DNA of 64,000 nt. It comes from Spirochaetota bacterium (lineage in GTDB: Bacteria; Spirochaetota; UBA4802; UBA5550). This document shows, one piece after another, positions 2,957 through 27,136 of the stretch. Positions within the stretch are counted from its first letter, which is position 1, and each line of letters begins with the position of its first letter. The stretch covers positions 288,001 through 352,000 of the forward strand of contig CAXXHB010000002.1 of NCBI GenBank assembly GCA_963664815.2. The letters are read 5' to 3'. A program made the translations under genes and the position numbers. Under the pieces are notes generated by a model that saw only the letters and a program-made list of their open reading frames with translations, had not been told where the DNA came from and searched no databases.

Positions 2957-3685
2957 CTTTATGCCTCATTATAATCAATTGTTCTTTCTTTGTGTCCAAC
3001 AGATAAATTCTTACGTACCAATGAACATTATTTAAAGAGCGGGTGCTCCCGAAGATCGCTTGTTTTGCAGTTAAATTTATTTTTTTAATACTTAAAAAAA
3101 AGCAGTGGAAAGAATGATACTTTCAGGCAGCAGAACCTTTTAAAATTAAATAGCATTTTATATATCGAATGGAGTTATCAAAATCCATTTATCTTCCCTG
3201 TGCAATTCTTTACTCTCTCTGATCTCATAGGTTTTCCCCTTAATCTCAAAAATAAAATTATAATCCATCCTCAGTTTTTCATCATCCACTTTATCAAATA
3301 TGTAAATAATTTCTCCTGGATATTTATTATACTCTTTTTCTAAAAATTCTGACTCAGTTTTAAAATGCAGAATATTCTTATCACTAAACATACTTCCATA
3401 AAACCAATCAATTCTTTTAAACGAAATGCTGTCACCTTCAGCATTAAATAAATTAACCGTACATTTCTTTATAATAATTGGTTGCCTCGTGCTTTTCCCT
3501 TGTAATCTAAAACTACTAAGTAAAACACCGGTCCATGACTCAATTTGATATTCAAATGCCATTTTAGTATTAAATAAATAAACCAGCTTAAGGTCTGTAT
3601 TTTTATTTATCTCCAGAACACAACTATCTTTATTTTCGCTGTCTAAATATGTAATTGATGTTCCCCCGAAAAAATGGACACTTTG

Positions 3686-4555
3686 TTAAGCCATTATTTT
3701 AAGATTTAATCTTTCAAAAATCTCCGGACTTTTATAACCCAGATGTGAATGCCTTCTTTTACGGTTATAAAATATTTCAATATATCTAAAGATACTTCTC
3801 TTAGCCTCATTCCTTGTTTTGTAAATATTAAAATAAAATTCTTCTGTTTTCATCGAATGAAATAAAGATTCAGCACAGGCATTATCCCAGCAATTGCCAT
3901 TCCTGCTCATACTCTGAATACATTTCTTTGATTCAAGTAATTCCCTGAAGGATTTGCTGGCATATTGTTTACCTCTATCAGAATGGAATATCAGGCCAGG
4001 GCCCGGATTTCTTCTCATACAGGCCATGTTAAAAGCATCTTCAACAAGTTCAGCTCTCATATGATTTGCCATTGACCATCCGACTATCATTCTGGAAAAT
4101 AAATCCATTACTATACATAAATACAGCCAGCCTTCTAATGTCCAGATATAGGTTATATCTGACACATATACTTTATCTTTCTCTTCAACAGTAAAATTCC
4201 TGTCTAGTATATTCTCAGACACTGGCAAAGAATGACCCGAATCAGTGGTTGCCTTAAATTTTTTCTTTGTCTTTGCATGAATCCCATTCACATTCATCAG
4301 CCTCTCAACCCTATGTATTCCGCAGAAAATACCTTCTTCAAGTAAATCCTGATGAATTCTGGGGCTGCCATAGCTCTCTCCGCTTGATTCATGTGATGAT
4401 TTTATCCTCTCCAATAGTATTTCATTTTCAAGCCCTCTTATACTCTTTGGAGCTTTCAGCCAGGCATAATAACCGCTTTTACTCACATCCATAATCTGGC
4501 ATATCCTCGATACTGGAAATTCAGTACTCTGTTCCTTGATGAATTCATATTTCAT
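3686..4555 (-). CDS. IS3 transposase OrfB (DDE integrase core)
   Basis: SDITY, FHSDRGKQY and NCWDNACAES motifs. Confidence 0.95.
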   Translation of the reverse strand: MKYEFIKEQSTEFPVSRICQIMDVSKSGYYAWLKAPKSIRGLENEILLERIKSSHESSGESYGSPRIHQDLLEEGIFCGIHRVERLMNVNGIHAKTKKKFKATTDSGHSLPVSENILDRNFTVEEKDKVYVSDITYIWTLEGWLYLCIVMDLFSRMIVGWSMANHMRAELVEDAFNMACMRRNPGPGLIFHSDRGKQYASKSFRELLESKKCIQSMSRNGNCWDNACAESLFHSMKTEEFYFNIYKTRNEAKRSIFRYIEIFYNRKRRHSHLGYKSPEIFERLNLKIMA

Positions 4556-4842
4556 TCTTGTGGTTTCGAGAATATGCCCAGAGCCTTTTTTAGAATGTCA
4601 CGCTCCTGCTTAAGAATCAACATTTCCTTCTTGAGTCGTTTAATTTCTTCACTATCCTGAGGATTTATTGTTATTGTCCCGGAATTCCTTTCCTCTGTTT
4701 CAATTTCCCTATTCCAGCGCAATAGATTATCTCTTTTAATCCCAAGATCATTCGCTATTTCAAGTGATGTCTTTCCGCTGGTTCTTAATAATTCTACAGC
4801 CTCTTTCTTAAATTCCGGGCTGTATTTACTTCTCTCTGACAT
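4552..4842 (-). CDS. IS3 transposase OrfA (HTH)
   Basis: KYSPEFKKEAV...ERDILKKA; A6G slippery site; ATGA overlap with orfB. Confidence 0.95.
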   Translation of the reverse strand: MSERSKYSPEFKKEAVELLRTSGKTSLEIANDLGIKRDNLLRWNREIETEERNSGTITINPQDSEEIKRLKKEMLILKQERDILKKALGIFSKPQE

Positions 4843-5217
4843 TGTAAGCCTCCAAATTTATTATATTTTCGGCTTAACTTAATGTCCACTATATCAGGGG
4901 AAGATCAAATATCCTTATATGGTATACATCCATTCATCAATGTTAACAAAATTATAATTATCAATATTTCCAATTTCATATTAATCTTCATTCATTTTTT
5001 AGTGAAACGATGACAAAGTATGTATTGTAATCTATATTTCAGCAGATACGGCTTCAAGGAGTCTTTGTCTATCTAAGTATGTATATATGTCATAATATAC
5101 ACTAGTCTATCCATTTTTTTCAATCTTTAAGTGTAAATTTTTTAACACGGATTTTCTGTGAGGTCTGCTCTGAACGAATCAAAGAGTAACTCAATAAGAG
5201 GTACAATGTTAAGTAAG

Positions 5218-11340: not shown

Positions 11341-11374
11341 ATTGGAAAGCGGTAAATTCTGATCGGTTTTAACA
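11341..11374. mobile_element. Isolated IS21-like terminal repeat
   Basis: Minus strand TGTTAAAACCGATCAGAATTTACCGCTTT, similar to the end at 16586. Confidence 0.55.
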
Positions 11375-11377
11375 GCC

Positions 11378-11701
11378 ATGAAGGTAGAGCTATCTACAAT
11401 AGCCGGTCATGCATCATAGAACATATATTCGGAGAAATAAATGAGTATAAACATTTCCGGAGATTCTATCATCGTGGACTGGAAAAGGTTAACACAATCC
11501 GGGCTATTTTCTGTAATGCTCATAATTTCCATAAGCTTGCCCGGCTGGAATACAGATTATAATTAAATAAATTAAAATATTCCCGAAGACATAGGATCTT
11601 CGGGATACATACAGGATTGTCAAAATAAAATCAGAGGATATTCAGTCGATATTATTTTAGACTACTCCATTTTTTTAATAAGCTACTTTTTCAACAGACT
11701 C
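11378..11701 (+). mobile_element. 3' remnant of IS1182-family element
   Basis: Highly similar to 21546-21874 (EGRAIYN...EHIFGEI...FRRFYHRGLEKVN); ends CAGACTC. Confidence 0.85.
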
Positions 11702-11730
11702 CTTTGTTATATGAAGTCGCCTGACTTTTT

Positions 11731-12099
11731 TTAAGAATTTTTAGTCAGAGTCCCTTGATGAAAAATCATTTTCCATTTATCATCCTTGTATTTCCATACC
11801 GAACTTCGAATTGAATATTTTTGTTCAAGATTAATTTCAGAATGCTTAATTAGTTTATATGTTGCTAAAACTATAAAATCAGATAATTGTTTAATCGAAA
11901 AATCAATTATTTCCCAATTAATTTTTGGAGAAATGAAAGTATCTCCTTTTTTGTAATGATATATTTTCCCATTGCTAGAAAATTCAATAAGTTCATCATC
12001 AATTATTTCATTTAATTTTTGTTCTGATTCTCTAGTCTCAGATTTTAATAATTGATTTTCTAAATAAAGTATTTCTTTTTCAATTGTTTTTATATTCAT
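11731..12099 (-). CDS. DUF4440 / NTF2-like protein (cassette-like)
   Basis: EFSSNG and RSSVWK...WKMIFHQGT motifs; attC R''-like ATATAAC shortly after the stop. Confidence 0.85.
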   Translation of the reverse strand: MNIKTIEKEILYLENQLLKSETRESEQKLNEIIDDELIEFSSNGKIYHYKKGDTFISPKINWEIIDFSIKQLSDFIVLATYKLIKHSEINLEQKYSIRSSVWKYKDDKWKMIFHQGTLTKNS

Positions 12100-13545: not shown

Positions 13546-14169
13546 ATGAATCATACTAAAGATCTTTTTGAAAAAGAATATGAAAAACCCATTGCACGTT
13601 GGACAAACGAAAATCCCCCACAAGAACTTACAGAGTTAATTGATTCTGAAATAATTAAACCTTGCAAAACTCTTGATATTGGATGCGGAGAAGGCTTTTA
13701 TTCTATTTATCTCGCAAAAAGAGGTTTTGAAGTCGTCGGAATAGACCTTTCAGAAAAGGCAATAGAATACGCAAAGAAAAATGCGAATGAAAATGGAGTG
13801 AATGTAAAATTCATTGCAATGAATGTAAAAAACTTGAACAAGTTGGATGAAAAGTTCGATTTTGTTTTTGAGTGGGCGTTTCTGCATTGCATAACAAAGC
13901 CCAAAGAAAGAGAAGAGTATATAGAAAAGGTGAGCAAACTATTAAATAAAGGTGGAAAATATTTTTCGATTTGTTTTAATGAAGATCAATTCAAAGAGAT
14001 CCCGGAAGAATCCAAGAAAGCCCTCGGATCAATATTATATTTTTCATCATTAAATGAACTTAAGAAATTATTCAGTTCTTATTTTAAGACAATAGAAAGT
14101 AAAGTAGTTGAAATTGTTGTATCCGGGAAAAAATTCATTTGGAACTATTTCCTGATGGAGAAAAAATAG
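13546..14169 (+). CDS. Class I SAM-dependent methyltransferase (TPMT/TehB-like)
   Basis: LDIGCGEG, GIDLSEKAI and FDFVFEWAFLH motifs; followed by ATATAAC at 14179. Confidence 0.88.
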   Translation: MNHTKDLFEKEYEKPIARWTNENPPQELTELIDSEIIKPCKTLDIGCGEGFYSIYLAKRGFEVVGIDLSEKAIEYAKKNANENGVNVKFIAMNVKNLNKLDEKFDFVFEWAFLHCITKPKEREEYIEKVSKLLNKGGKYFSICFNEDQFKEIPEESKKALGSILYFSSLNELKKLFSSYFKTIESKVVEIVVSGKKFIWNYFLMEKK

Positions 14170-16586: not shown

Positions 16587-16730
16587 ATTATTATTTTTTC
16601 CGGTAAAATCACCGGATTATTACTGCATGTTATTTCAAATACCGGAAGAAAACGGTGTTCAAATCTCTATTAATACTTGTGCTGAGTATAATCGAAGTAT
16701 GTTCTGCCCGATAGCAGCGGTTTCGTCCAC
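16587..16730. repeat. Dispersed ~140-bp repeat, copy A
   Basis: Shares GATTATTACTGCATGTTATTTCAA, ACCGGAAGAAAACGGT, TTGTGCTGAGTATAA and ATGTTCTGCCCGATA with 22621-22750. Confidence 0.85.
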
Positions 16731-17929: not shown

Positions 17930-19060
17930 TCAAAAGAAATATCCAAAATCAATCGCAATTGTTTTAATCGAACCAGTATAAAGATCTCGCGAAATAATTT
18001 TTTTATCAACTGAATAAATTAACCAACGATCAATGATTTTATAAACAGCATAATCATCTGGTTCTAAGATTATTTGCTTATCTTTATATACATCATATAT
18101 TACTAAATAATCATCTGGTGATGAGCGACCCTCAATTTTTTTTTCTTTATTAAAAACTAAAAATCTTCCATCTTCACTAATCGTAATTCCTTGATAATCT
18201 TCATTTTCATCAGGTTGCGTTACATGATATACTTTATTTTTTCTCAAATCTAAATATTCGATCCAAGTATGTATATCTTTTAGCGGTTTAAACTGTACAT
18301 AAGCAAGAGTATTATTTCCTGATATTTTAAAACCATTTGTTAATAAAGGAAACTGTTTGAATTTTTCAAATTTATTTGTTTCAATATAATAATATGATAA
18401 ATTGTGTTCTAACCCAGAATTATCAAAATCTTCAAAATTTCTATGTATTTTTTGCATATCATAATATTTGTTATCATCTAGTTCATAACATAATATAGTG
18501 TTTGAATTTGGTACAAATTGCAGAAAGCCCCCAAGCTTCCGTATATATGTAGTTTTTTCATTTCGTGTGTTATAATAATAAAATCCCTTTTTGGGATTTA
18601 TTCTATGCAACAGTTCATTTTCTGTGCTCGGGCATTCTCTGAAATAAATAAAATAATCACCTGTATCACTCCATCCAGTTAGTAAGATTTCTGATGCAGT
18701 ATAATCGCTTGTTTCTTCATAAAATTTTTCGATAAATCGTTCTGTATTTTTCTTTAAGTTCATTATATATAAGTCATTATTCTTTAAATATGCTAAAAAC
18801 TCTCCATTTTTTGAGATTAATGGATAGCCTCTTCCTCTGAAGGCACTCATATTGCCCATGCCACTTTTACCTGCAACTATCTTATTATTTCCAAGCGCAT
18901 CTAGAATACAAATATCATCATTTTCAGCAAGATAGCATAAATATGGAATATTTTTTACTTCGGGTATTTTATCTGTAATCTGTTCAGGTAAATTTGGATT
19001 TTTACAAGATTCTAATGCCAGCATTATTAGGAGAAAAAAAATAGCTTTTATTGATTTCAT
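17930..19060 (-). CDS. Lipoprotein with TolB/WD40-like beta-propeller repeats
   Basis: Start MKSIKAI, lipobox LESC; ISKNGEFLAY, WSDTGDYFIY and ISEDGRFLVF repeats. Confidence 0.7.
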   Translation of the reverse strand: MKSIKAIFFLLIMLALESCKNPNLPEQITDKIPEVKNIPYLCYLAENDDICILDALGNNKIVAGKSGMGNMSAFRGRGYPLISKNGEFLAYLKNNDLYIMNLKKNTERFIEKFYEETSDYTASEILLTGWSDTGDYFIYFRECPSTENELLHRINPKKGFYYYNTRNEKTTYIRKLGGFLQFVPNSNTILCYELDDNKYYDMQKIHRNFEDFDNSGLEHNLSYYYIETNKFEKFKQFPLLTNGFKISGNNTLAYVQFKPLKDIHTWIEYLDLRKNKVYHVTQPDENEDYQGITISEDGRFLVFNKEKKIEGRSSPDDYLVIYDVYKDKQIILEPDDYAVYKIIDRWLIYSVDKKIISRDLYTGSIKTIAIDFGYFF

Positions 19061-19129
19061 ATTATTCAATCCTCTATTTTTTAGTTCAATAATAAGTATA
19101 TTTAAATCTAAATTTTGTAGCACGATTTT

Positions 19130-19228
19130 GTTCAACGCCTAGCTTACGCAAAGTTGGCCGAAGGCCAATTTGCCGAGCCTGTTTCTCAAGTCAAGTGCCA
19201 AGGAGCGAAAGCGACGCAGCGCCGTAAG
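19130..19228 (-). other. attC-like site, L''-L'-R' portion (R'' portion displaced to 21875-21885)
   Basis: Minus strand CTTACG...central hairpins...CGTAAGCTAGGC-GTTGAAC (GTTRRRY) directly upstream of an orphan gene. Confidence 0.65.
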
Positions 19229-19429
19229 TTTTGAGTCTAACGCAAAAATAAATATTAATTTACTGTCAACACACAGGATGTGAATAATATCAATCATCTT
19301 TTAAAAAAAGGATAAAGATATGAATGCACGCTACCACTCATACACTCCAGACCAGCTCTTTATATGATCTTCCCCTGATATAGTGGACATTAAGTTAAGC
19401 CGAAAATATAATAAATTTGGAGGCTTACA

Positions 19430-19720
19430 ATGTCAGAGAGAAGTAAATACAGCCCGGAATTTAAGAAAGAGGCTGTAGAATTATTAAGAACCAGCGGAAA
19501 GACATCACTTGAAATAGCGAATGATCTTGGGATTAAAAGAGATAATCTATTGCGCTGGAATAGGGAAATTGAAACAGAGGAAAGGAATTCCGGGACAATA
19601 ACAATAAATCCTCAGGATAGTGAAGAAATTAAACGACTCAAGAAGGAAATGTTGATTCTTAAGCAGGAGCGTGACATTCTAAAAAAGGCTCTGGGCATAT
19701 TCTCGAAACCACAAGAATGA
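19430..19720 (+). CDS. IS3 transposase OrfA
   Basis: Protein identical to 4552-4842; AAAAAAG at 19681 with the -1 frame open into orfB. Confidence 0.95.
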   Translation: MSERSKYSPEFKKEAVELLRTSGKTSLEIANDLGIKRDNLLRWNREIETEERNSGTITINPQDSEEIKRLKKEMLILKQERDILKKALGIFSKPQE

Positions 19721-20586
19721 AATATGAATTCATCAAGGAACAGAGTACTGAATTTCCAGTATCGAGGATATGCCAGATTATGGATGTGAGTAAAAGCGGT
19801 TATTATGCCTGGCTGAAAGCTCCAAAGAGTATAAGAGGGCTTGAAAATGAAATACTATTGGAGAGGATAAAATCATCACATGAATCAAGCGGAGAGAGCT
19901 ATGGCAGCCCCAGAATTCATCAGGATTTACTTGAAGAAGGTATTTTCTGCGGAATACATAGGGTTGAGAGGCTGATGAATGTGAATGGGATTCATGCAAA
20001 GACAAAGAAAAAATTTAAGGCAACCACTGATTCGGGTCATTCTTTGCCAGTGTCTGAGAATATACTAGACAGGAATTTTACTGTTGAAGAGAAAGATAAA
20101 GTATATGTGTCAGATATAACCTATATCTGGACATTAGAAGGCTGGCTGTATTTATGTATAGTAATGGATTTATTTTCCAGAATGATAGTCGGATGGTCAA
20201 TGGCAAATCATATGAGAGCTGAACTTGTTGAAGATGCTTTTAACATGGCCTGTATGAGAAGAAATCCGGGCCCTGGCCTGATATTCCATTCTGATAGAGG
20301 TAAACAATATGCCAGCAAATCCTTCAGGGAATTACTTGAATCAAAGAAATGTATTCAGAGTATGAGCAGGAATGGCAATTGCTGGGATAATGCCTGTGCT
20401 GAATCTTTATTTCATTCGATGAAAACAGAAGAATTTTATTTTAATATTTACAAAACAAGGAATGAGGCTAAGAGAAGTATCTTTAGATATATTGAAATAT
20501 TTTATAACCGTAAAAGAAGGCATTCACATCTGGGTTATAAAAGTCCGGAGATTTTTGAAAGATTAAATCTTAAAATAATGGCTTAA
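19717..20586 (+). CDS. IS3 transposase OrfB
   Basis: Protein identical to 3686-4555. Confidence 0.95.
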   Translation: MKYEFIKEQSTEFPVSRICQIMDVSKSGYYAWLKAPKSIRGLENEILLERIKSSHESSGESYGSPRIHQDLLEEGIFCGIHRVERLMNVNGIHAKTKKKFKATTDSGHSLPVSENILDRNFTVEEKDKVYVSDITYIWTLEGWLYLCIVMDLFSRMIVGWSMANHMRAELVEDAFNMACMRRNPGPGLIFHSDRGKQYASKSFRELLESKKCIQSMSRNGNCWDNACAESLFHSMKTEEFYFNIYKTRNEAKRSIFRYIEIFYNRKRRHSHLGYKSPEIFERLNLKIMA

Positions 20587-20945
20587 CAAAGTGTCCATTT
20601 TTTCGGGGGAACATCAATAGTCCAGATAAATCCTGAAGAAATCCACAGACATAATTCTCTTGTATCTGCAATAGATGACTTTGTCAAAAACATGTCTCAT
20701 TATCACCATTTTCAGCAAAATATGCCAACAGCTTAAACGGAGCTCCGGCTATTCATGCCGGGATGATGCTTAAAGTAATTTTTTATTGTTTCGCTACATG
20801 AAGTTACAGTTCAAGAGAGATCGAAAGGAGAACTAACTGGGATCAGAATGTAATTTACCTTTCCGGTGACAGCTCAGTAGATCATAGTACAATCTGCCGT
20901 TTTATAGAAAAATATCCGGAAGAGATAACAAATGTATTTTCACGA

Positions 20946-21533
20946 ATGGTATATGTACTTAAAAAGATGGGTTTAATAAATTATGATATTGTTGCAATTG
21001 ACGGTAGTAAAATTCAGGGATACGGGAGCAAAGAGTTTACAGGTAACATAAAGGAATTTAAAGAGCAGAAGAGACGTATAGAAAAAAAGATTTCAATACT
21101 TCTGAACAATACAACAAACGATATTTCGCTGCCGGAAAAGAAACTTAAGCGTTGGGAATATAATCTTGAAAAAATAACATCTTTTCTTGCTGACGTAGAA
21201 AATTCAGATAATAACGATTATGAACATACACGCATTAATCTGACAGACCGCAATGCAAGACTTTTGAAGGACAGTGGCCGAATTTATCTGGGTTATAACT
21301 GTCAGACAGCAGCCATTGGGGAAAATAATATAATTGTCGGGTACCAGGTAACTAATAATGCCAGTGACAAGTCTCAACTGGTCCCGATGATAGATGAAGT
21401 AAAAAAACATCAGAATGACCACAGCATTGAAATGAAAGTAGTCGTTGATGCGGGATACTTCACTTCCGAAAATATCGAATATGCAGAAGAAAATGCCATA
21501 ACAATTTCAGGGCAGGAACAGGATGAAGAGTAA
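20946..21533 (+). pseudogene. IS1182 transposase central fragment
   Basis: VAIDGSKI, NLTDRNARLLK, GYNCQTA and VVDAGYFT motifs; frameshifts on both sides. Confidence 0.85.
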
Positions 21534-21986
21534 ACTATTGAGTCCTGAAGGTAGAGCTATCTACAATAACCGGTCATGCATCATGGAACATGGAACATAT
21601 ATTCGGAGAAATAAAGGAGTATAAACATTTCCGGAGATTCTATCACCGTGGACTGGAAAAGGTTAACACAATATGGTCTCTTATCTGTATTGCTCATAAT
21701 TTCCGGAAGTTCGCCCGGCTGGAAGACAGATTATAATTAAATAAATTAAAATATTCCCAAAGACACACGATCTTCGGGATACATACAGGATTGTAAAAAT
21801 AAAATCAGAGGATATTCAGCCGATATTATTTTAAACTACGTATTTTTTTAATATGTTACTTTTGCGACAGACTCCTTTGTTATCGGCTGTTGACCCGCCC
21901 CTTATTATCTTTTTCGTATAAATTTGTTCAAGTGGAAAACGATGTCGAGCCTGAATAATTCAGATATAAATATTTTTGTAAATCTG

Positions 21987-22307
21987 CTATAATCCCATTT
22001 GCAAAGCTCTTTTAATAACAGGAGCAACTGTATCATTATTTATTTTATTATTTTTACAATATTCTGAATTTATCCAGTCTGATAATTTTTTAGTTCCTTT
22101 ACTTGAATTACATGCTGAACAACATCTGGCAATATTTTCTTTTGTAATAATAGTCTGGTCATTAATTATATGTTCCCACGTTGCAGCATTTTTCCTTGAT
22201 TCTCCTCGATTTACTTTTTCAACCATTTTAATCCCACAATAAACACAGTTCTTATCTCTTATAATTATTTCTTTCTCCATTTCTTCAGGAATATTCCATC
22301 TATTCAT
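21987..22307 (-). CDS. HNH endonuclease
   Basis: RDKNCVYCG...WEHI...NIARCCSACNSSKG. Confidence 0.88.
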   Translation of the reverse strand: MNRWNIPEEMEKEIIIRDKNCVYCGIKMVEKVNRGESRKNAATWEHIINDQTIITKENIARCCSACNSSKGTKKLSDWINSEYCKNNKINNDTVAPVIKRALQMGL

Positions 22308-22321
22308 GTATTAATTTCCTT

Positions 22322-22630
22322 TTATACAGAGTGAAATTCTTTTTCTAAGAACTCAACTCCAGTTTTATATGGATCATTTTGTTTCTTAAGAAACTCAATA
22401 TTTGTTTTGTATTGTTCTGGAAAATTTTTAAATTCTTCCGCCATACGTTTAACACCTGCTGGACATAGATAGGCTGGTGTATTTAATCCATTTATTCCTA
22501 AGGAGGAGATTTTTTCATCAAATAATTCTTCGGATACTTCAACGCCGAATAATGTTTTTACTGCTTTATTTGTTAATTGTATAAAATATGGAATTCTTAC
22601 TACTTTATATCTTAGATTTATAAAATCATC
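22322..22630 (-). pseudogene. 5'-truncated gene, possibly DUF559/Vsr-like nuclease C-terminus
   Basis: Open frame without start: FINLRYKVVRIPYFIQLTNKAVK...TPAYLCPAGVKRMAEEF...HSV*; cut at repeat copy B. Confidence 0.5.
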
Positions 22631-22750
22631 AGATTATTACTGCATGTTATTTCAAGGACCGGAAGAAAACGGTATTAAAATTCCTGTCTATATTTGTGCT
22701 GAGTATAAAAACGAAGCATGTTCTGCCCGATACCAGCAGCTTCGTTCAAC
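22621..22750. repeat. Dispersed ~140-bp repeat, copy B
   Basis: See copy A; 24-bp exact core at 22632-22655 matches 16615-16638. Confidence 0.85.
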
Positions 22751-23925: not shown

Positions 23926-24960
23926 CTATAATCCCTCAAGTTCTGCTTCAATCTCTTCAATAGATGGAAGACTTGATTTCAACTGTTCCGGCAATGATTC
24001 AGTTAACCGGTATTCCGATACACCAATAGGCTTATTGATGTCACTGAGCGCATACTCAGCCACAAGCTTATCCCGCTTTTTGCAAATTATTATTCCGATA
24101 GTGGGGGTATCCTGTTCTGTACGAAACTGGGTATCTACTGCCTTAATGTAGAAGTTCAGCTTTTCCGCGTGTTCAGGTTCAAATTCAATAGTTTTGAGCT
24201 CAATTACGATGTAACAGTGGAGTTTGATATGATAAAAAAGGAGATCAATGAAAAACTCACGTTCTCCCACCTGTAGGGGAACCTGACGGCCGATATAGGC
24301 AAAACCAGCACCAAGTTCAAGTAGAAATCTCGAAACGTGATCAACCAGGCTGGTTTCAAGATCCCTCTCTGTAAAATCTGATGTAAGAGAGAGAAAATCA
24401 AATACATAGGGATCCTTGACAGTCTGCTGCGCCAAATCTGATATTGGCTCCGGAAGAGTGGCAGGGAAATTGCTTATACTTTTGCCCTCACGGTTTATCA
24501 GGCCGCTCTCTATCTGATGGACAAGAACGCTGCGGCTCCAGCCATGTTCAATTATTTTGCTAACGTAATAAGATGCATCATTCAGATTTTTACATTTAGT
24601 GATTATTACTATGTTGTGACCCCAGGGAATCTGCTTAATTTGTGCAACAAGCTGTTGCCCAATTGATACTCCCTGGTTATAAAAAAGATACCACTGCCTG
24701 ATATATTTTAAATTCCTTTCTGAAAACCCTTTCATGTACGGAAACTCAGAGGATAAATCCCTGCTTAGTTGTGTTAAAAAACCATCCCCCCAGGAATGCT
24801 GAGATTGTTGACGAACTATTTCTGCACCGAGATCCCAATACAGCTGAAGAAGTTCAACATTAACCTGGACAGCTGCCTTGAGCCGGGAAGAGCGGACTTT
24901 TTGTTTAAGAGATAAAAGCCAGTCTTTATATTCTTTATCAATAGAGATATCTGAATTCAT
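23926..24960 (-). CDS. YhcG/DUF1016 PD-(D/E)XK nuclease-domain protein
   Basis: LYWDLG, FSERNLKYIRQW, IPWGHN, KDPYVFDFL, LLELGAGFAY and IDLLFYH...IELK motifs. Confidence 0.92.
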   Translation of the reverse strand: MNSDISIDKEYKDWLLSLKQKVRSSRLKAAVQVNVELLQLYWDLGAEIVRQQSQHSWGDGFLTQLSRDLSSEFPYMKGFSERNLKYIRQWYLFYNQGVSIGQQLVAQIKQIPWGHNIVIITKCKNLNDASYYVSKIIEHGWSRSVLVHQIESGLINREGKSISNFPATLPEPISDLAQQTVKDPYVFDFLSLTSDFTERDLETSLVDHVSRFLLELGAGFAYIGRQVPLQVGEREFFIDLLFYHIKLHCYIVIELKTIEFEPEHAEKLNFYIKAVDTQFRTEQDTPTIGIIICKKRDKLVAEYALSDINKPIGVSEYRLTESLPEQLKSSLPSIEEIEAELEGL

Positions 24961-26870: not shown

Positions 26871-27136
26871 GTATTTAAACGAACTTTCGCAGAAAAATGT
26901 GACATATTTTTTGAAAAACACTACAAAATACAATTTTCCATCCCTATAATAACATATAATATCATCTTTTCAGATATTCCGGGCGGTTGTTATAACAATT
27001 AATAAACCGCATTAAAATTCTTATTGAATTTTACGCTTTTAAAAAAGTATAATGCAGATGTAGTCATTTAATGTTTCAAAGAATGATTGCTTATTAAAAG
27101 TGCAATTAATTATTAAAATTAAAAAGGAGAGTTGTA

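Follow-up and report, generated by a model that had tools for sequence, protein, structure and literature searches.

Probable targeted insertion of an IS1182-family element into an attC-like cassette site of a Spirochaetota bacterium

Introduction

What has brought an insertion sequence (IS) to a position between the first two boxes of a structured, attC-like site is the question raised by a 64,000-nucleotide stretch of a Spirochaetota genome (assembly GCA_963664815.2, contig CAXXHB010000002.1, positions 288,001 to 352,000), which we call the window and in which positions are counted from its first letter. On the minus strand of the window, a decayed element of the IS1182 family, which itself harbours an element of the IS3 family, separates a box of the R'' type from the L'', L' and R' boxes that would complete the site. 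Related copies of the element occupy the same position of the same site family in other parts of this genome (G000) and in other genomes. We thus regard it as probable that the IS1182 element was targeted to the R''/L'' junction, where it duplicated 4 bp, decayed and was later hit by the IS3 element.

In attC sites of integrons, the R'' box follows the consensus RYYYAAC and the R' box the consensus GTTRRRY. We refer to the sites described here as attC-like, which denotes a likeness only, since they are found without a canonical IntI, with a recombinase of the type devoid of the additional IntI-specific domain, and without conserved bulged bases.

Results

Anatomy of the split site

The features of the locus are as follows.

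19130 to 19228, minus strand: body of the attC-like site, comprising L'', a branched centre, L', a spacer and the R' core GTTGAAC at 19136-19130 (covariance model, nhmmer, fold).
19229 to 19232, minus strand: copy of the target duplication, AAAA on this strand and TTTT on plus, one base off the other copy (junction sequence).
19233 to 21874, plus strand: IS1182-family element with a dead transposase gene reading on plus, its left inverted repeat (IRL) starting at 19233 and its right inverted repeat (IRR) ending at 21874 (NF033551, PF05598, PF01609).
21875 to 21878, minus strand: copy of the target duplication, AAAG on this strand and CTTT on plus (junction sequence).
21879 to 21885, minus strand: R'' box of the split site, CGATAAC (nhmmer coverage of the rebuilt site up to model position 100).
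21987 to 22307, minus strand: open reading frame (ORF) of 106 aa, a presumed cassette gene upstream of the site on the top strand (weak HNH-like matches; PF01844 at E 0.0079, below the cut-off).
17930 to 19060, minus strand: next ORF downstream of R' (ATG at 19060 read from the sequence; weak DPPIV_N match), whose open frame extends to a TTG at 19135, giving 401 aa, in the program-made ORF list.

Read on the minus strand, the order is CGATAAC-AAAG, the IS, and AAAA-CTTACGG...CGTAAGCTAGGC-GTTGAAC, with about 100 nt between the 106-aa ORF (22307-21987) and CGATAAC (21885-21879). On the plus strand, the left junction reads CCGTAAG-TTTT, the latter four bases at 19229-19232, followed from 19233 by the IS starting GAGTCTAACGCAAAAAT, and at the right junction the IS ends TTTTGCGACAGACTC at 21874 and is followed by CTTT-GTTATCG at 21875-21885. 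Joining R'' (21885-21879) to the segment L''...L'-R' (19228-19130) rebuilds one structured site of about 110 nt. The top-strand junction of this site, ...ATAAC-AAAG-CTTA..., consists of two inverted half-motifs flanking a 4-bp spacer, and it is the spacer that was duplicated. At the corresponding position, intact sites of the family carry a single CTTT, as illustrated by GTAAGCTTTGTT in sites on contig C3 of G000. A preliminary description of this DNA had placed an IS3 inside an IS1182 element inside such a site, between R'' and L'' and flanked by the 4-nt near-duplication AAAG/AAAA. The nesting with all its coordinates, the location between the two boxes and the near-duplication at the junctions are borne out by our analysis.

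The outer element is a decayed IS of the IS1182 family. Devoid of the IS3 element and one copy of its ATA flank it measures 1387 bp, and its terminal repeats, both of which begin GAGTCT, agree at 16 of their first 19 bases. The longest read-through of its transposase, 286 aa with X at the stops, scores 166.8 bits with NF033551, far above the models of other IS families, and also matches PF05598 and PF01609, with the NF033551 score staying below the cut-off of 270 because the copy is truncated. An intact relative (P0002), which is 79% identical to the window copy, reaches 283.4 bits against the same cut-off and carries all three Pfam domains of the IS1182 architecture (DUF772, DDE_Tnp_1 and DDE_Tnp_1_6), and intact metagenomic relatives of about 480 aa contain PF05598, PF01609 and PF13751. 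The extent of the decay is reflected in the tblastn alignment of P0002, which matches the window copy as fragments in three frames and leaves residues 320-384 unmatched: residues 1-15 map before the IS3 element, residues 15-37 and 39-319 lie in different frames and the C-terminal part is frameshifted, with an in-frame stop located in the transposase frame. When used as a single protein, the broken transposase retrieved no close relatives from genome contigs; an alignment-based search did find them. The assignment to the family is based on the transposase model, the terminal inverted repeats and the target duplication.

The nested IS3 element

19365 to 20616, plus strand: IS3-family element of 1252 bp with orfA at 19430-19720 and orfB at 19717-20586 (NF033516, Pfam, junctions).

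The inner element belongs to the IS3 family, as evidenced by a score of 353.7 bits with NF033516 (cut-off 160), overlapping ORFs with Pfam HTH and rve domains, TG...CA ends (TGATC.../...ACATCA) and a 3-bp duplication, ATA, at 19362-19364 and 20617-20619. Its insertion point follows codon 15 of the IS1182 transposase, and the match of P0002 across the IS3 element and ATA runs from residue 15 to residue 15 (window positions 19364 to 20617), a continuity that defines the order of nesting as site, then IS1182, then IS3. An inverted twin with 100% identity is found 14.4 kb apart at 3654-4911 (partner 19361-20618), and the genome holds six further copies at no less than 99.8% identity, the window twin included; the perfect twin and the near-identical genome copies imply that the element has moved recently. 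The inverted pair could flip the segment between 3654-4911 and 19361-20618.

A family of structured sites

A motif search followed by nhmmer located about a dozen sites of around 100 nt in G000. Eight complete ones align well and fold into an outer (R) helix of 5 bp and an (L) helix of 7 bp, separated by an unpaired spacer, and three small hairpins, with an RNAalifold consensus of 26 pairs, 13 of which show compensatory changes. We built a covariance model from the eight other sites of G000, leaving the window site out (R1), and a second model from the array sites of genome G006 (R2). R1 matched 12 places in G000 and identified in the window the segment 19130-19241 at 29.8 bits (E 2.4e-6), as its sole window match below E 0.1. 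This alignment extends to the IS junction, which is also where the nhmmer match to the window site ends after covering model positions 2-94 of 101. In-silico removal of the IS and one flank copy raises the nhmmer score from 20.1 to 29.4 bits and extends the coverage to positions 2-100, so that the rebuilt site scores higher and at full length on the model of its own family. A genome of another genus, G018, has an intact site of this subtype with a continuous GTAAGCTTTGTTG at the point where the IS sits in the window, and the fold of the rebuilt window site retains the L-box stem and the first hairpin. The flanks are thus homologous to intact sites and, judged by sequence, they appear as two parts of one structured site of this repeat family.

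Within the window the site stands alone. A cassette array was considered and rejected, since neither R1 nor R2 gives a second site below E 0.1, and an R1 match at 13886-13947 on the minus strand (E 0.13) lies inside an ORF and was treated as chance. Clusters of attC sites lacking an integron integrase (CALIN) are defined by at least two attC sites clustered under a 4-kb rule with no intI nearby (PMC4889954). This definition does not apply to the window, which offers one detectable site and, 10 kb away, a remnant consisting of an R''-type box only. A scan of the whole window with Rfam returned no family at its gathering score. Elsewhere in G000 (C3:3693762-3697637; L003, L009, L010), two attC-like sites bracket a unit of about 3.9 kb in which the gene for a 287-aa tyrosine recombinase overlaps an IS91-family (Y2) transposase gene, and which looks like a mobile element carried as a cassette.

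Because the family reads RYYYAAC...GTT on both strands, its orientation was tested in two ways. At 9-10 of the 12 G000 sites, the stop codon of an ORF running against the aligned orientation precedes the site by 8-48 nt. Near-identical duplicated units in G006 begin where a site begins in the aligned orientation, and their other end lies 6-29 nt inside the following site, as predicted by a crossover at that end of the site. Gene orientation and duplicate boundaries therefore define the aligned orientation as the bottom strand and the minus strand of the window as the top strand, in line with the strand chosen in the preliminary description. They also overturn the converse assignment of plus as the top strand, on which the family aligns as RYYYAAC-5 nt-GCTTAC...GTAAGC-TTT-GTT.

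Recurrent position of the insertion

The lineage of the outer element is found at one position of this site family across genomes. In G000, blast detected one interrupted full copy, one copy resembling a miniature inverted-repeat transposable element (MITE) with both ends, and five solo remnants of the IRR side, the other remnants being 80-91% identical. Each of the seven IRR ends has an R''-type box and AAAG, or a one-base variant thereof, in front of it, and each of the two IRL ends a site body ending TAAG followed by YYTT; a looser motif scan of the same genome revealed three further short remnants with the same flank. One truncated copy is present in the window.

11374 to 11712, plus strand: truncated second copy of the IS1182 element, IRR side only (repeat match from 11374; blast match 11379-11701, about 90% identical to 21541-21874).

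Its IS end is followed by CTTT (11702-11705) and an R''-type box (11706-11712) located 18 nt beyond the stop of the ORF at 11731-12099 on the minus strand, with the rest of the site gone.

The same pattern extends to other genomes. Exact matches to the 15-nt IS end were found in seven of the 122 genomes of the order, and all 19 of them lie at the two canonical positions: 11 border on AAC and 4 further nt, which are AAAG in seven cases, and eight border on a site body, which the covariance model detects at seven of these eight. In 12 metagenome loci with at least 68% identity to P0002, 17 of the 18 ends reside at canonical positions, 14 of the 18 in the usual orientation with the IRR towards R''. 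Three of these loci (L122, L124, L125) have full-length transposase genes, are canonically flanked at either end and show perfect duplications of CTTT, and a perfect 4-bp duplication is also found in L104. In a genome of the same genus (G001:C182:297-2237), the site nearest to an Xer-like recombinase gene carries an end of this IS lineage at about 0.9 kb from the gene.

Arrays of sites next to a tyrosine recombinase

In the complete genome G006 of the same genus, 59 site matches, 54 of them co-oriented, are found within about 100 kb (G006:C1:4328805-4428003; L098-L103), and this array ends 320 bp from the gene for a 356-aa Xer-like tyrosine recombinase. The arrangement of a recombinase of about 356 aa just upstream of co-oriented cassettes is shared by G000 (C3:1970100-1973206), where it resides on a different contig from the lone window site, and by eight relatives (G001, G004, G006, G007, G009, G028, G048, G054). 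The recombinase passes NF040815 at 230-235 bits and scores 209-221 bits with the integron-integrase model TIGR02249, whose cut-off is 265 and above which no protein was found in G000, G004, G006 or G007. Compared to the canonical IntI of G040, three segments with a total of about 40 residues are missing and an N-terminal extension of about 85 residues is present. A hand tally of 61 related genomes yields 20 with recombinase and sites, 13 with sites only, 10 with the recombinase only and 18 with neither; this co-occurrence is weak and the genomes are non-independent, and the case for a link rests on adjacency.

The relationship of the sites to integron attC is ambivalent. In the 59 G006 sites, 94% of cells are paired in an alignment fitted to the model, versus at most 47% when the partners are slid, and AAC and GTT are kept in 47-59 sites by column, with a consensus of RYATAAC...GTTAT. 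In the window, the R' box GTTGAAC fits GTTRRRY fully, whereas the R'' box CGATAAC fits RYYYAAC only in TAAC. The family shares with attC the imperfect palindrome of paired R and L boxes, the position behind an ORF and the bounding of mobile cassettes, the latter two reflected in the ORF stops and the G006 duplicates. Conserved extrahelical bases are not found: in 58 of the 59 G006 sites, the insert columns next to the L box contain gaps, and a single bulged T or C on the '' arm is seen in three of eight G000 sites and in the window site. The reading as an integron attC in the preliminary description finds support in the paired boxes and the succession of ORF and site, but not in the integrase, for which G000 contains no TIGR02249 match above the cut-off, the extrahelical bases and the lone location in the window.

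Genes and repeats in the surroundings

One of the ORFs on the minus strand upstream of the split site, at 23926-24960, encodes a YhcG/DUF1016 PDDEXK nuclease. A non-coding repeat of about 130 nt is located between minus-strand ORFs at 16604-16729 and 22621-22748 (about 86% identical), with a partial copy at 27004-27037. It has no Rfam match and is unrelated to the attC-like family.

Discussion

A proposed targeted insertion and the observations that weigh against it

We propose that an IS1182-family element transposed between R'' and L'' of an attC-like cassette site, thereby duplicating AAAG on the top strand, that this copy then decayed, as seen from its in-frame stop, its frameshifts and the deletion inside it, and that a still-active IS3 element inserted later into the decayed copy. 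The insertion would not have been random, as the lineage places its ends at one position of the site family with the IRR usually towards R''. The DDE transposase may recognize a quasi-palindromic motif of arm, spacer and arm by its sequence, its local structure or both, which fits the taste of the IS1182 family for palindromes and hairpins. In these spirochaetes, the cassette sites would supply this motif, either as a duplex or as a folded single strand. With 2.6 kb between R'' and the remainder, a simple hairpin can no longer accommodate the R helix, and the site is therefore very likely inert for folding and recombination. The loss of cassette excision proposed in the preliminary description is plausible.

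Several observations weigh against such a targeted insertion into a single intact site. The copies of the duplication differ by one base (AAAG versus AAAA), and they are unequal in two of the three other pairs of the genome set. The preliminary description had expected the rebuilt site to fold as attC; it keeps the L stem, but its folding energy is ordinary and no better than that of 300 shuffled sequences (z +0.3). A similar value (z +0.9) is obtained for its closest intact relative, the site in G018, with four other family members at z -1.0 to -3.4, and the R2 model scores the window site at 18.7 bits (E 0.025). The window site is a divergent member of its family and perhaps already a weak one. 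The empty site expected in related genomes was not encountered: no orthologous one was found when each flank was searched as DNA in 61 genomes of the family, and in G083 an 88% identical copy of the HNH-like ORF is followed by no such site. Equally, none of the contigs from four public sequencing runs (X21-X24) that align to 18700-22500 joins 19228/19232 to 21875, where a rare allele could escape contigs. The sole joint in these contigs, 19314 to 21747, was rejected as an empty site, since it is a MITE-like paralogue located on C3. Among the metagenome loci, the IRR abuts a site body in L123 and L126, both ends abut R''-type boxes in L128, and L127 has a short IRL flank that does not resemble a site; the chimeric flanks in L123, L126 and L128 match the expected outcome of recombination between copies of the IS. 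Two further points concern the specificity of the target. The motif AACAAAGCTTA occurs 15 times in G000, of which 10 are outside sites and free of the IS, which hints that more than those 11 bases matter. In a sister clade of transposases with 48-50% identity (L130-L191 from metagenomes and L038-L045 on genome contigs), found mostly on contigs of Dehalococcoidales as named on the genome contigs L039-L045 only, 27 of 35 rows have, at a distance of 4-5 nt beyond either end, a GCGTATAA-type motif, with no visible duplication. These 13-mers belong to a limited set and occur in either combination of ends, and the preference may thus be for a palindromic motif in general and not for cassette sites as such.

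Alternative explanations

The identity of the target affects how the insertion is to be viewed. One possibility, to which we assign somewhat less than even chances, is that the sites constitute a separate, integron-like cassette system of spirochaetes that is served by the Xer-like recombinase, and that the IS1182 lineage consists of DDE transposons specialized as parasites of that system. The lack of extrahelical bases in the sites would then correspond to the lack of the IntI-specific domain in the recombinase, and the IS would cut the spacer of the arm-spacer-arm motif made by R'' and L'', a layout that we take to resemble the core site of Xer recombinases. A literature search for integron-like systems with other recombinases yielded nothing relevant.

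Rather unlikely, in our view, is that the site is a true integron attC left over alone after its IntI was lost or resides elsewhere, and that the IS merely landed in a hairpin with no tie to cassettes. The RYYYAAC...GTTRRRY-type ends, whose AAC and GTT are as well kept in G006 as described above, the R and L boxes, and the arrays of ORF-then-site units all conform to such an attC. Canonical IntI genes are found in five of the 61 related genomes, and hairpins are targeted by IS1272 according to PMC5678879 and PMC4923244. However, no IntI above cut-off is present in G000 or in the array-bearing genomes G004, G006 and G007, the array-adjacent recombinase lacks some 40 residues of the IntI-specific domain and the L box is devoid of the conserved bulged base. 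The two genomes of the same family with canonical IntI contain one weak site match in G015 (E 2.7e-4) and none in G019. A landing anywhere in a hairpin is at odds with the fixed position of 19 of 19 and 17 of 18 ends.

Even less probable is a chimera, in which two directly repeated IS copies, located in two sites of an array, would have recombined, deleted the cassettes between them and left a single IS with the R'' of one site on one side and the body of another on the other. The rebuilt site would in that case never have existed as such. It would account for the unequal copies of the duplication and for the relative of the ORF without a site in G083. There is precedent in the chimeric flanks of L123, L126 and L128, and a second, truncated copy of the IS is present in the same orientation 10 kb away. 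Moreover, a matching duplication cannot prove contiguity, as the 4 bp are conserved in the target. Conversely, one mismatch in eight bases is expected in a decayed copy, considering the 80-91% identity of other remnants. In the rebuilt site, four of the five model pairs of the R box are formed (read by eye), and direct evidence of a deletion was not found.

Finally, the notion that the conserved flanks (ATAAC-AAAG, TAAG-CTTT) are long terminal repeats of the IS and that no host site was split, which is suggested by the ATAA(C/G)+4 motif that both carry when read towards the IS and by the conserved 13-mer outside both ends in the sister clade, is largely refuted and most improbable, as the same sequence is found unbroken and without the IS in intact sites, G006 holds 59 covariance-model matches and no exact IS end, L'' pairs and covaries with L' and R'' with R', and the bases beyond ATAAC differ between copies.

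Consequences for cassette systems

Targeted insertion of this kind would lend itself to studying how a cut-and-paste transposase recognizes a target that is structured or palindromic. Such elements can lock cassettes in place, cause deletions and inversions between sites and spread isolated sites through a genome, and signs of all these are seen in G000. The arrays beside a recombinase without the integron-specific domain, which may matter more, hint that cassette platforms are broader than the integron defined by IntI.

Comparison with known systems

To our knowledge, IS1111-attC elements and group IIC-attC introns are the only ones that home to cassette sites, and neither is a DDE transposon. 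The literature that we found confirms just the existence of these two groups. No report of IS1182-family elements targeting attC or cassette sites was found in a search whose scope did not include subscription journals and ISfinder, which agrees with the preliminary description, where the family was not counted among known attC-targeting elements.

Elements of the IS1111-attC group (IS110/IS1111) occupy a fixed position in cassette sites, mostly in one orientation, and likely cripple the site. The IS1182 lineage shares with them the fixed position, the predominant orientation and the probable crippling of the site. It differs in its transposase, which is of the DDE and not of the DEDD type, in its 4-bp duplication, where IS1111-attC elements are not known to generate one, and in its target, which is an attC-like family of spirochaetes instead of attC sites of the class 1 type. 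Elements that target repetitive extragenic palindromes (REP) or bacterial interspersed mosaic elements (BIME) home to a structured host repeat family, a trait that is common to the lineage described here. In contrast to intergenic REP sequences, however, the repeat in our case marks the boundaries of cassettes beside a tyrosine recombinase.

Group IIC-attC introns are, as described in PMC3001079, mobile elements that are specialised for attC and orientation-specific, which constitutes their likeness to the element in the window. They differ in being retroelements, which comprise a ribozyme and a reverse transcriptase, whereas the latter is a DNA transposon. Closest with respect to the transposase is IS1272, a member of the IS1182 family which, according to PMC5678879 and PMC4923244, targets inverted repeats or hairpins, and for the palindromic targets of the family these papers cite Siguier et al. 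2015. As described in the same papers, IS1272 attacks hairpins of unrelated sequence in both orientations, deletes or replaces the stem-loop and leaves no duplication. Unlike IS1272, the lineage in the window enters one sequence-defined position of one repeat family, keeps its target and duplicates 4 bp. A DDE element that keeps to one position, mostly in one orientation, and cleanly duplicates 4 bp would represent a third and mechanistically different solution to the targeting of cassette sites.

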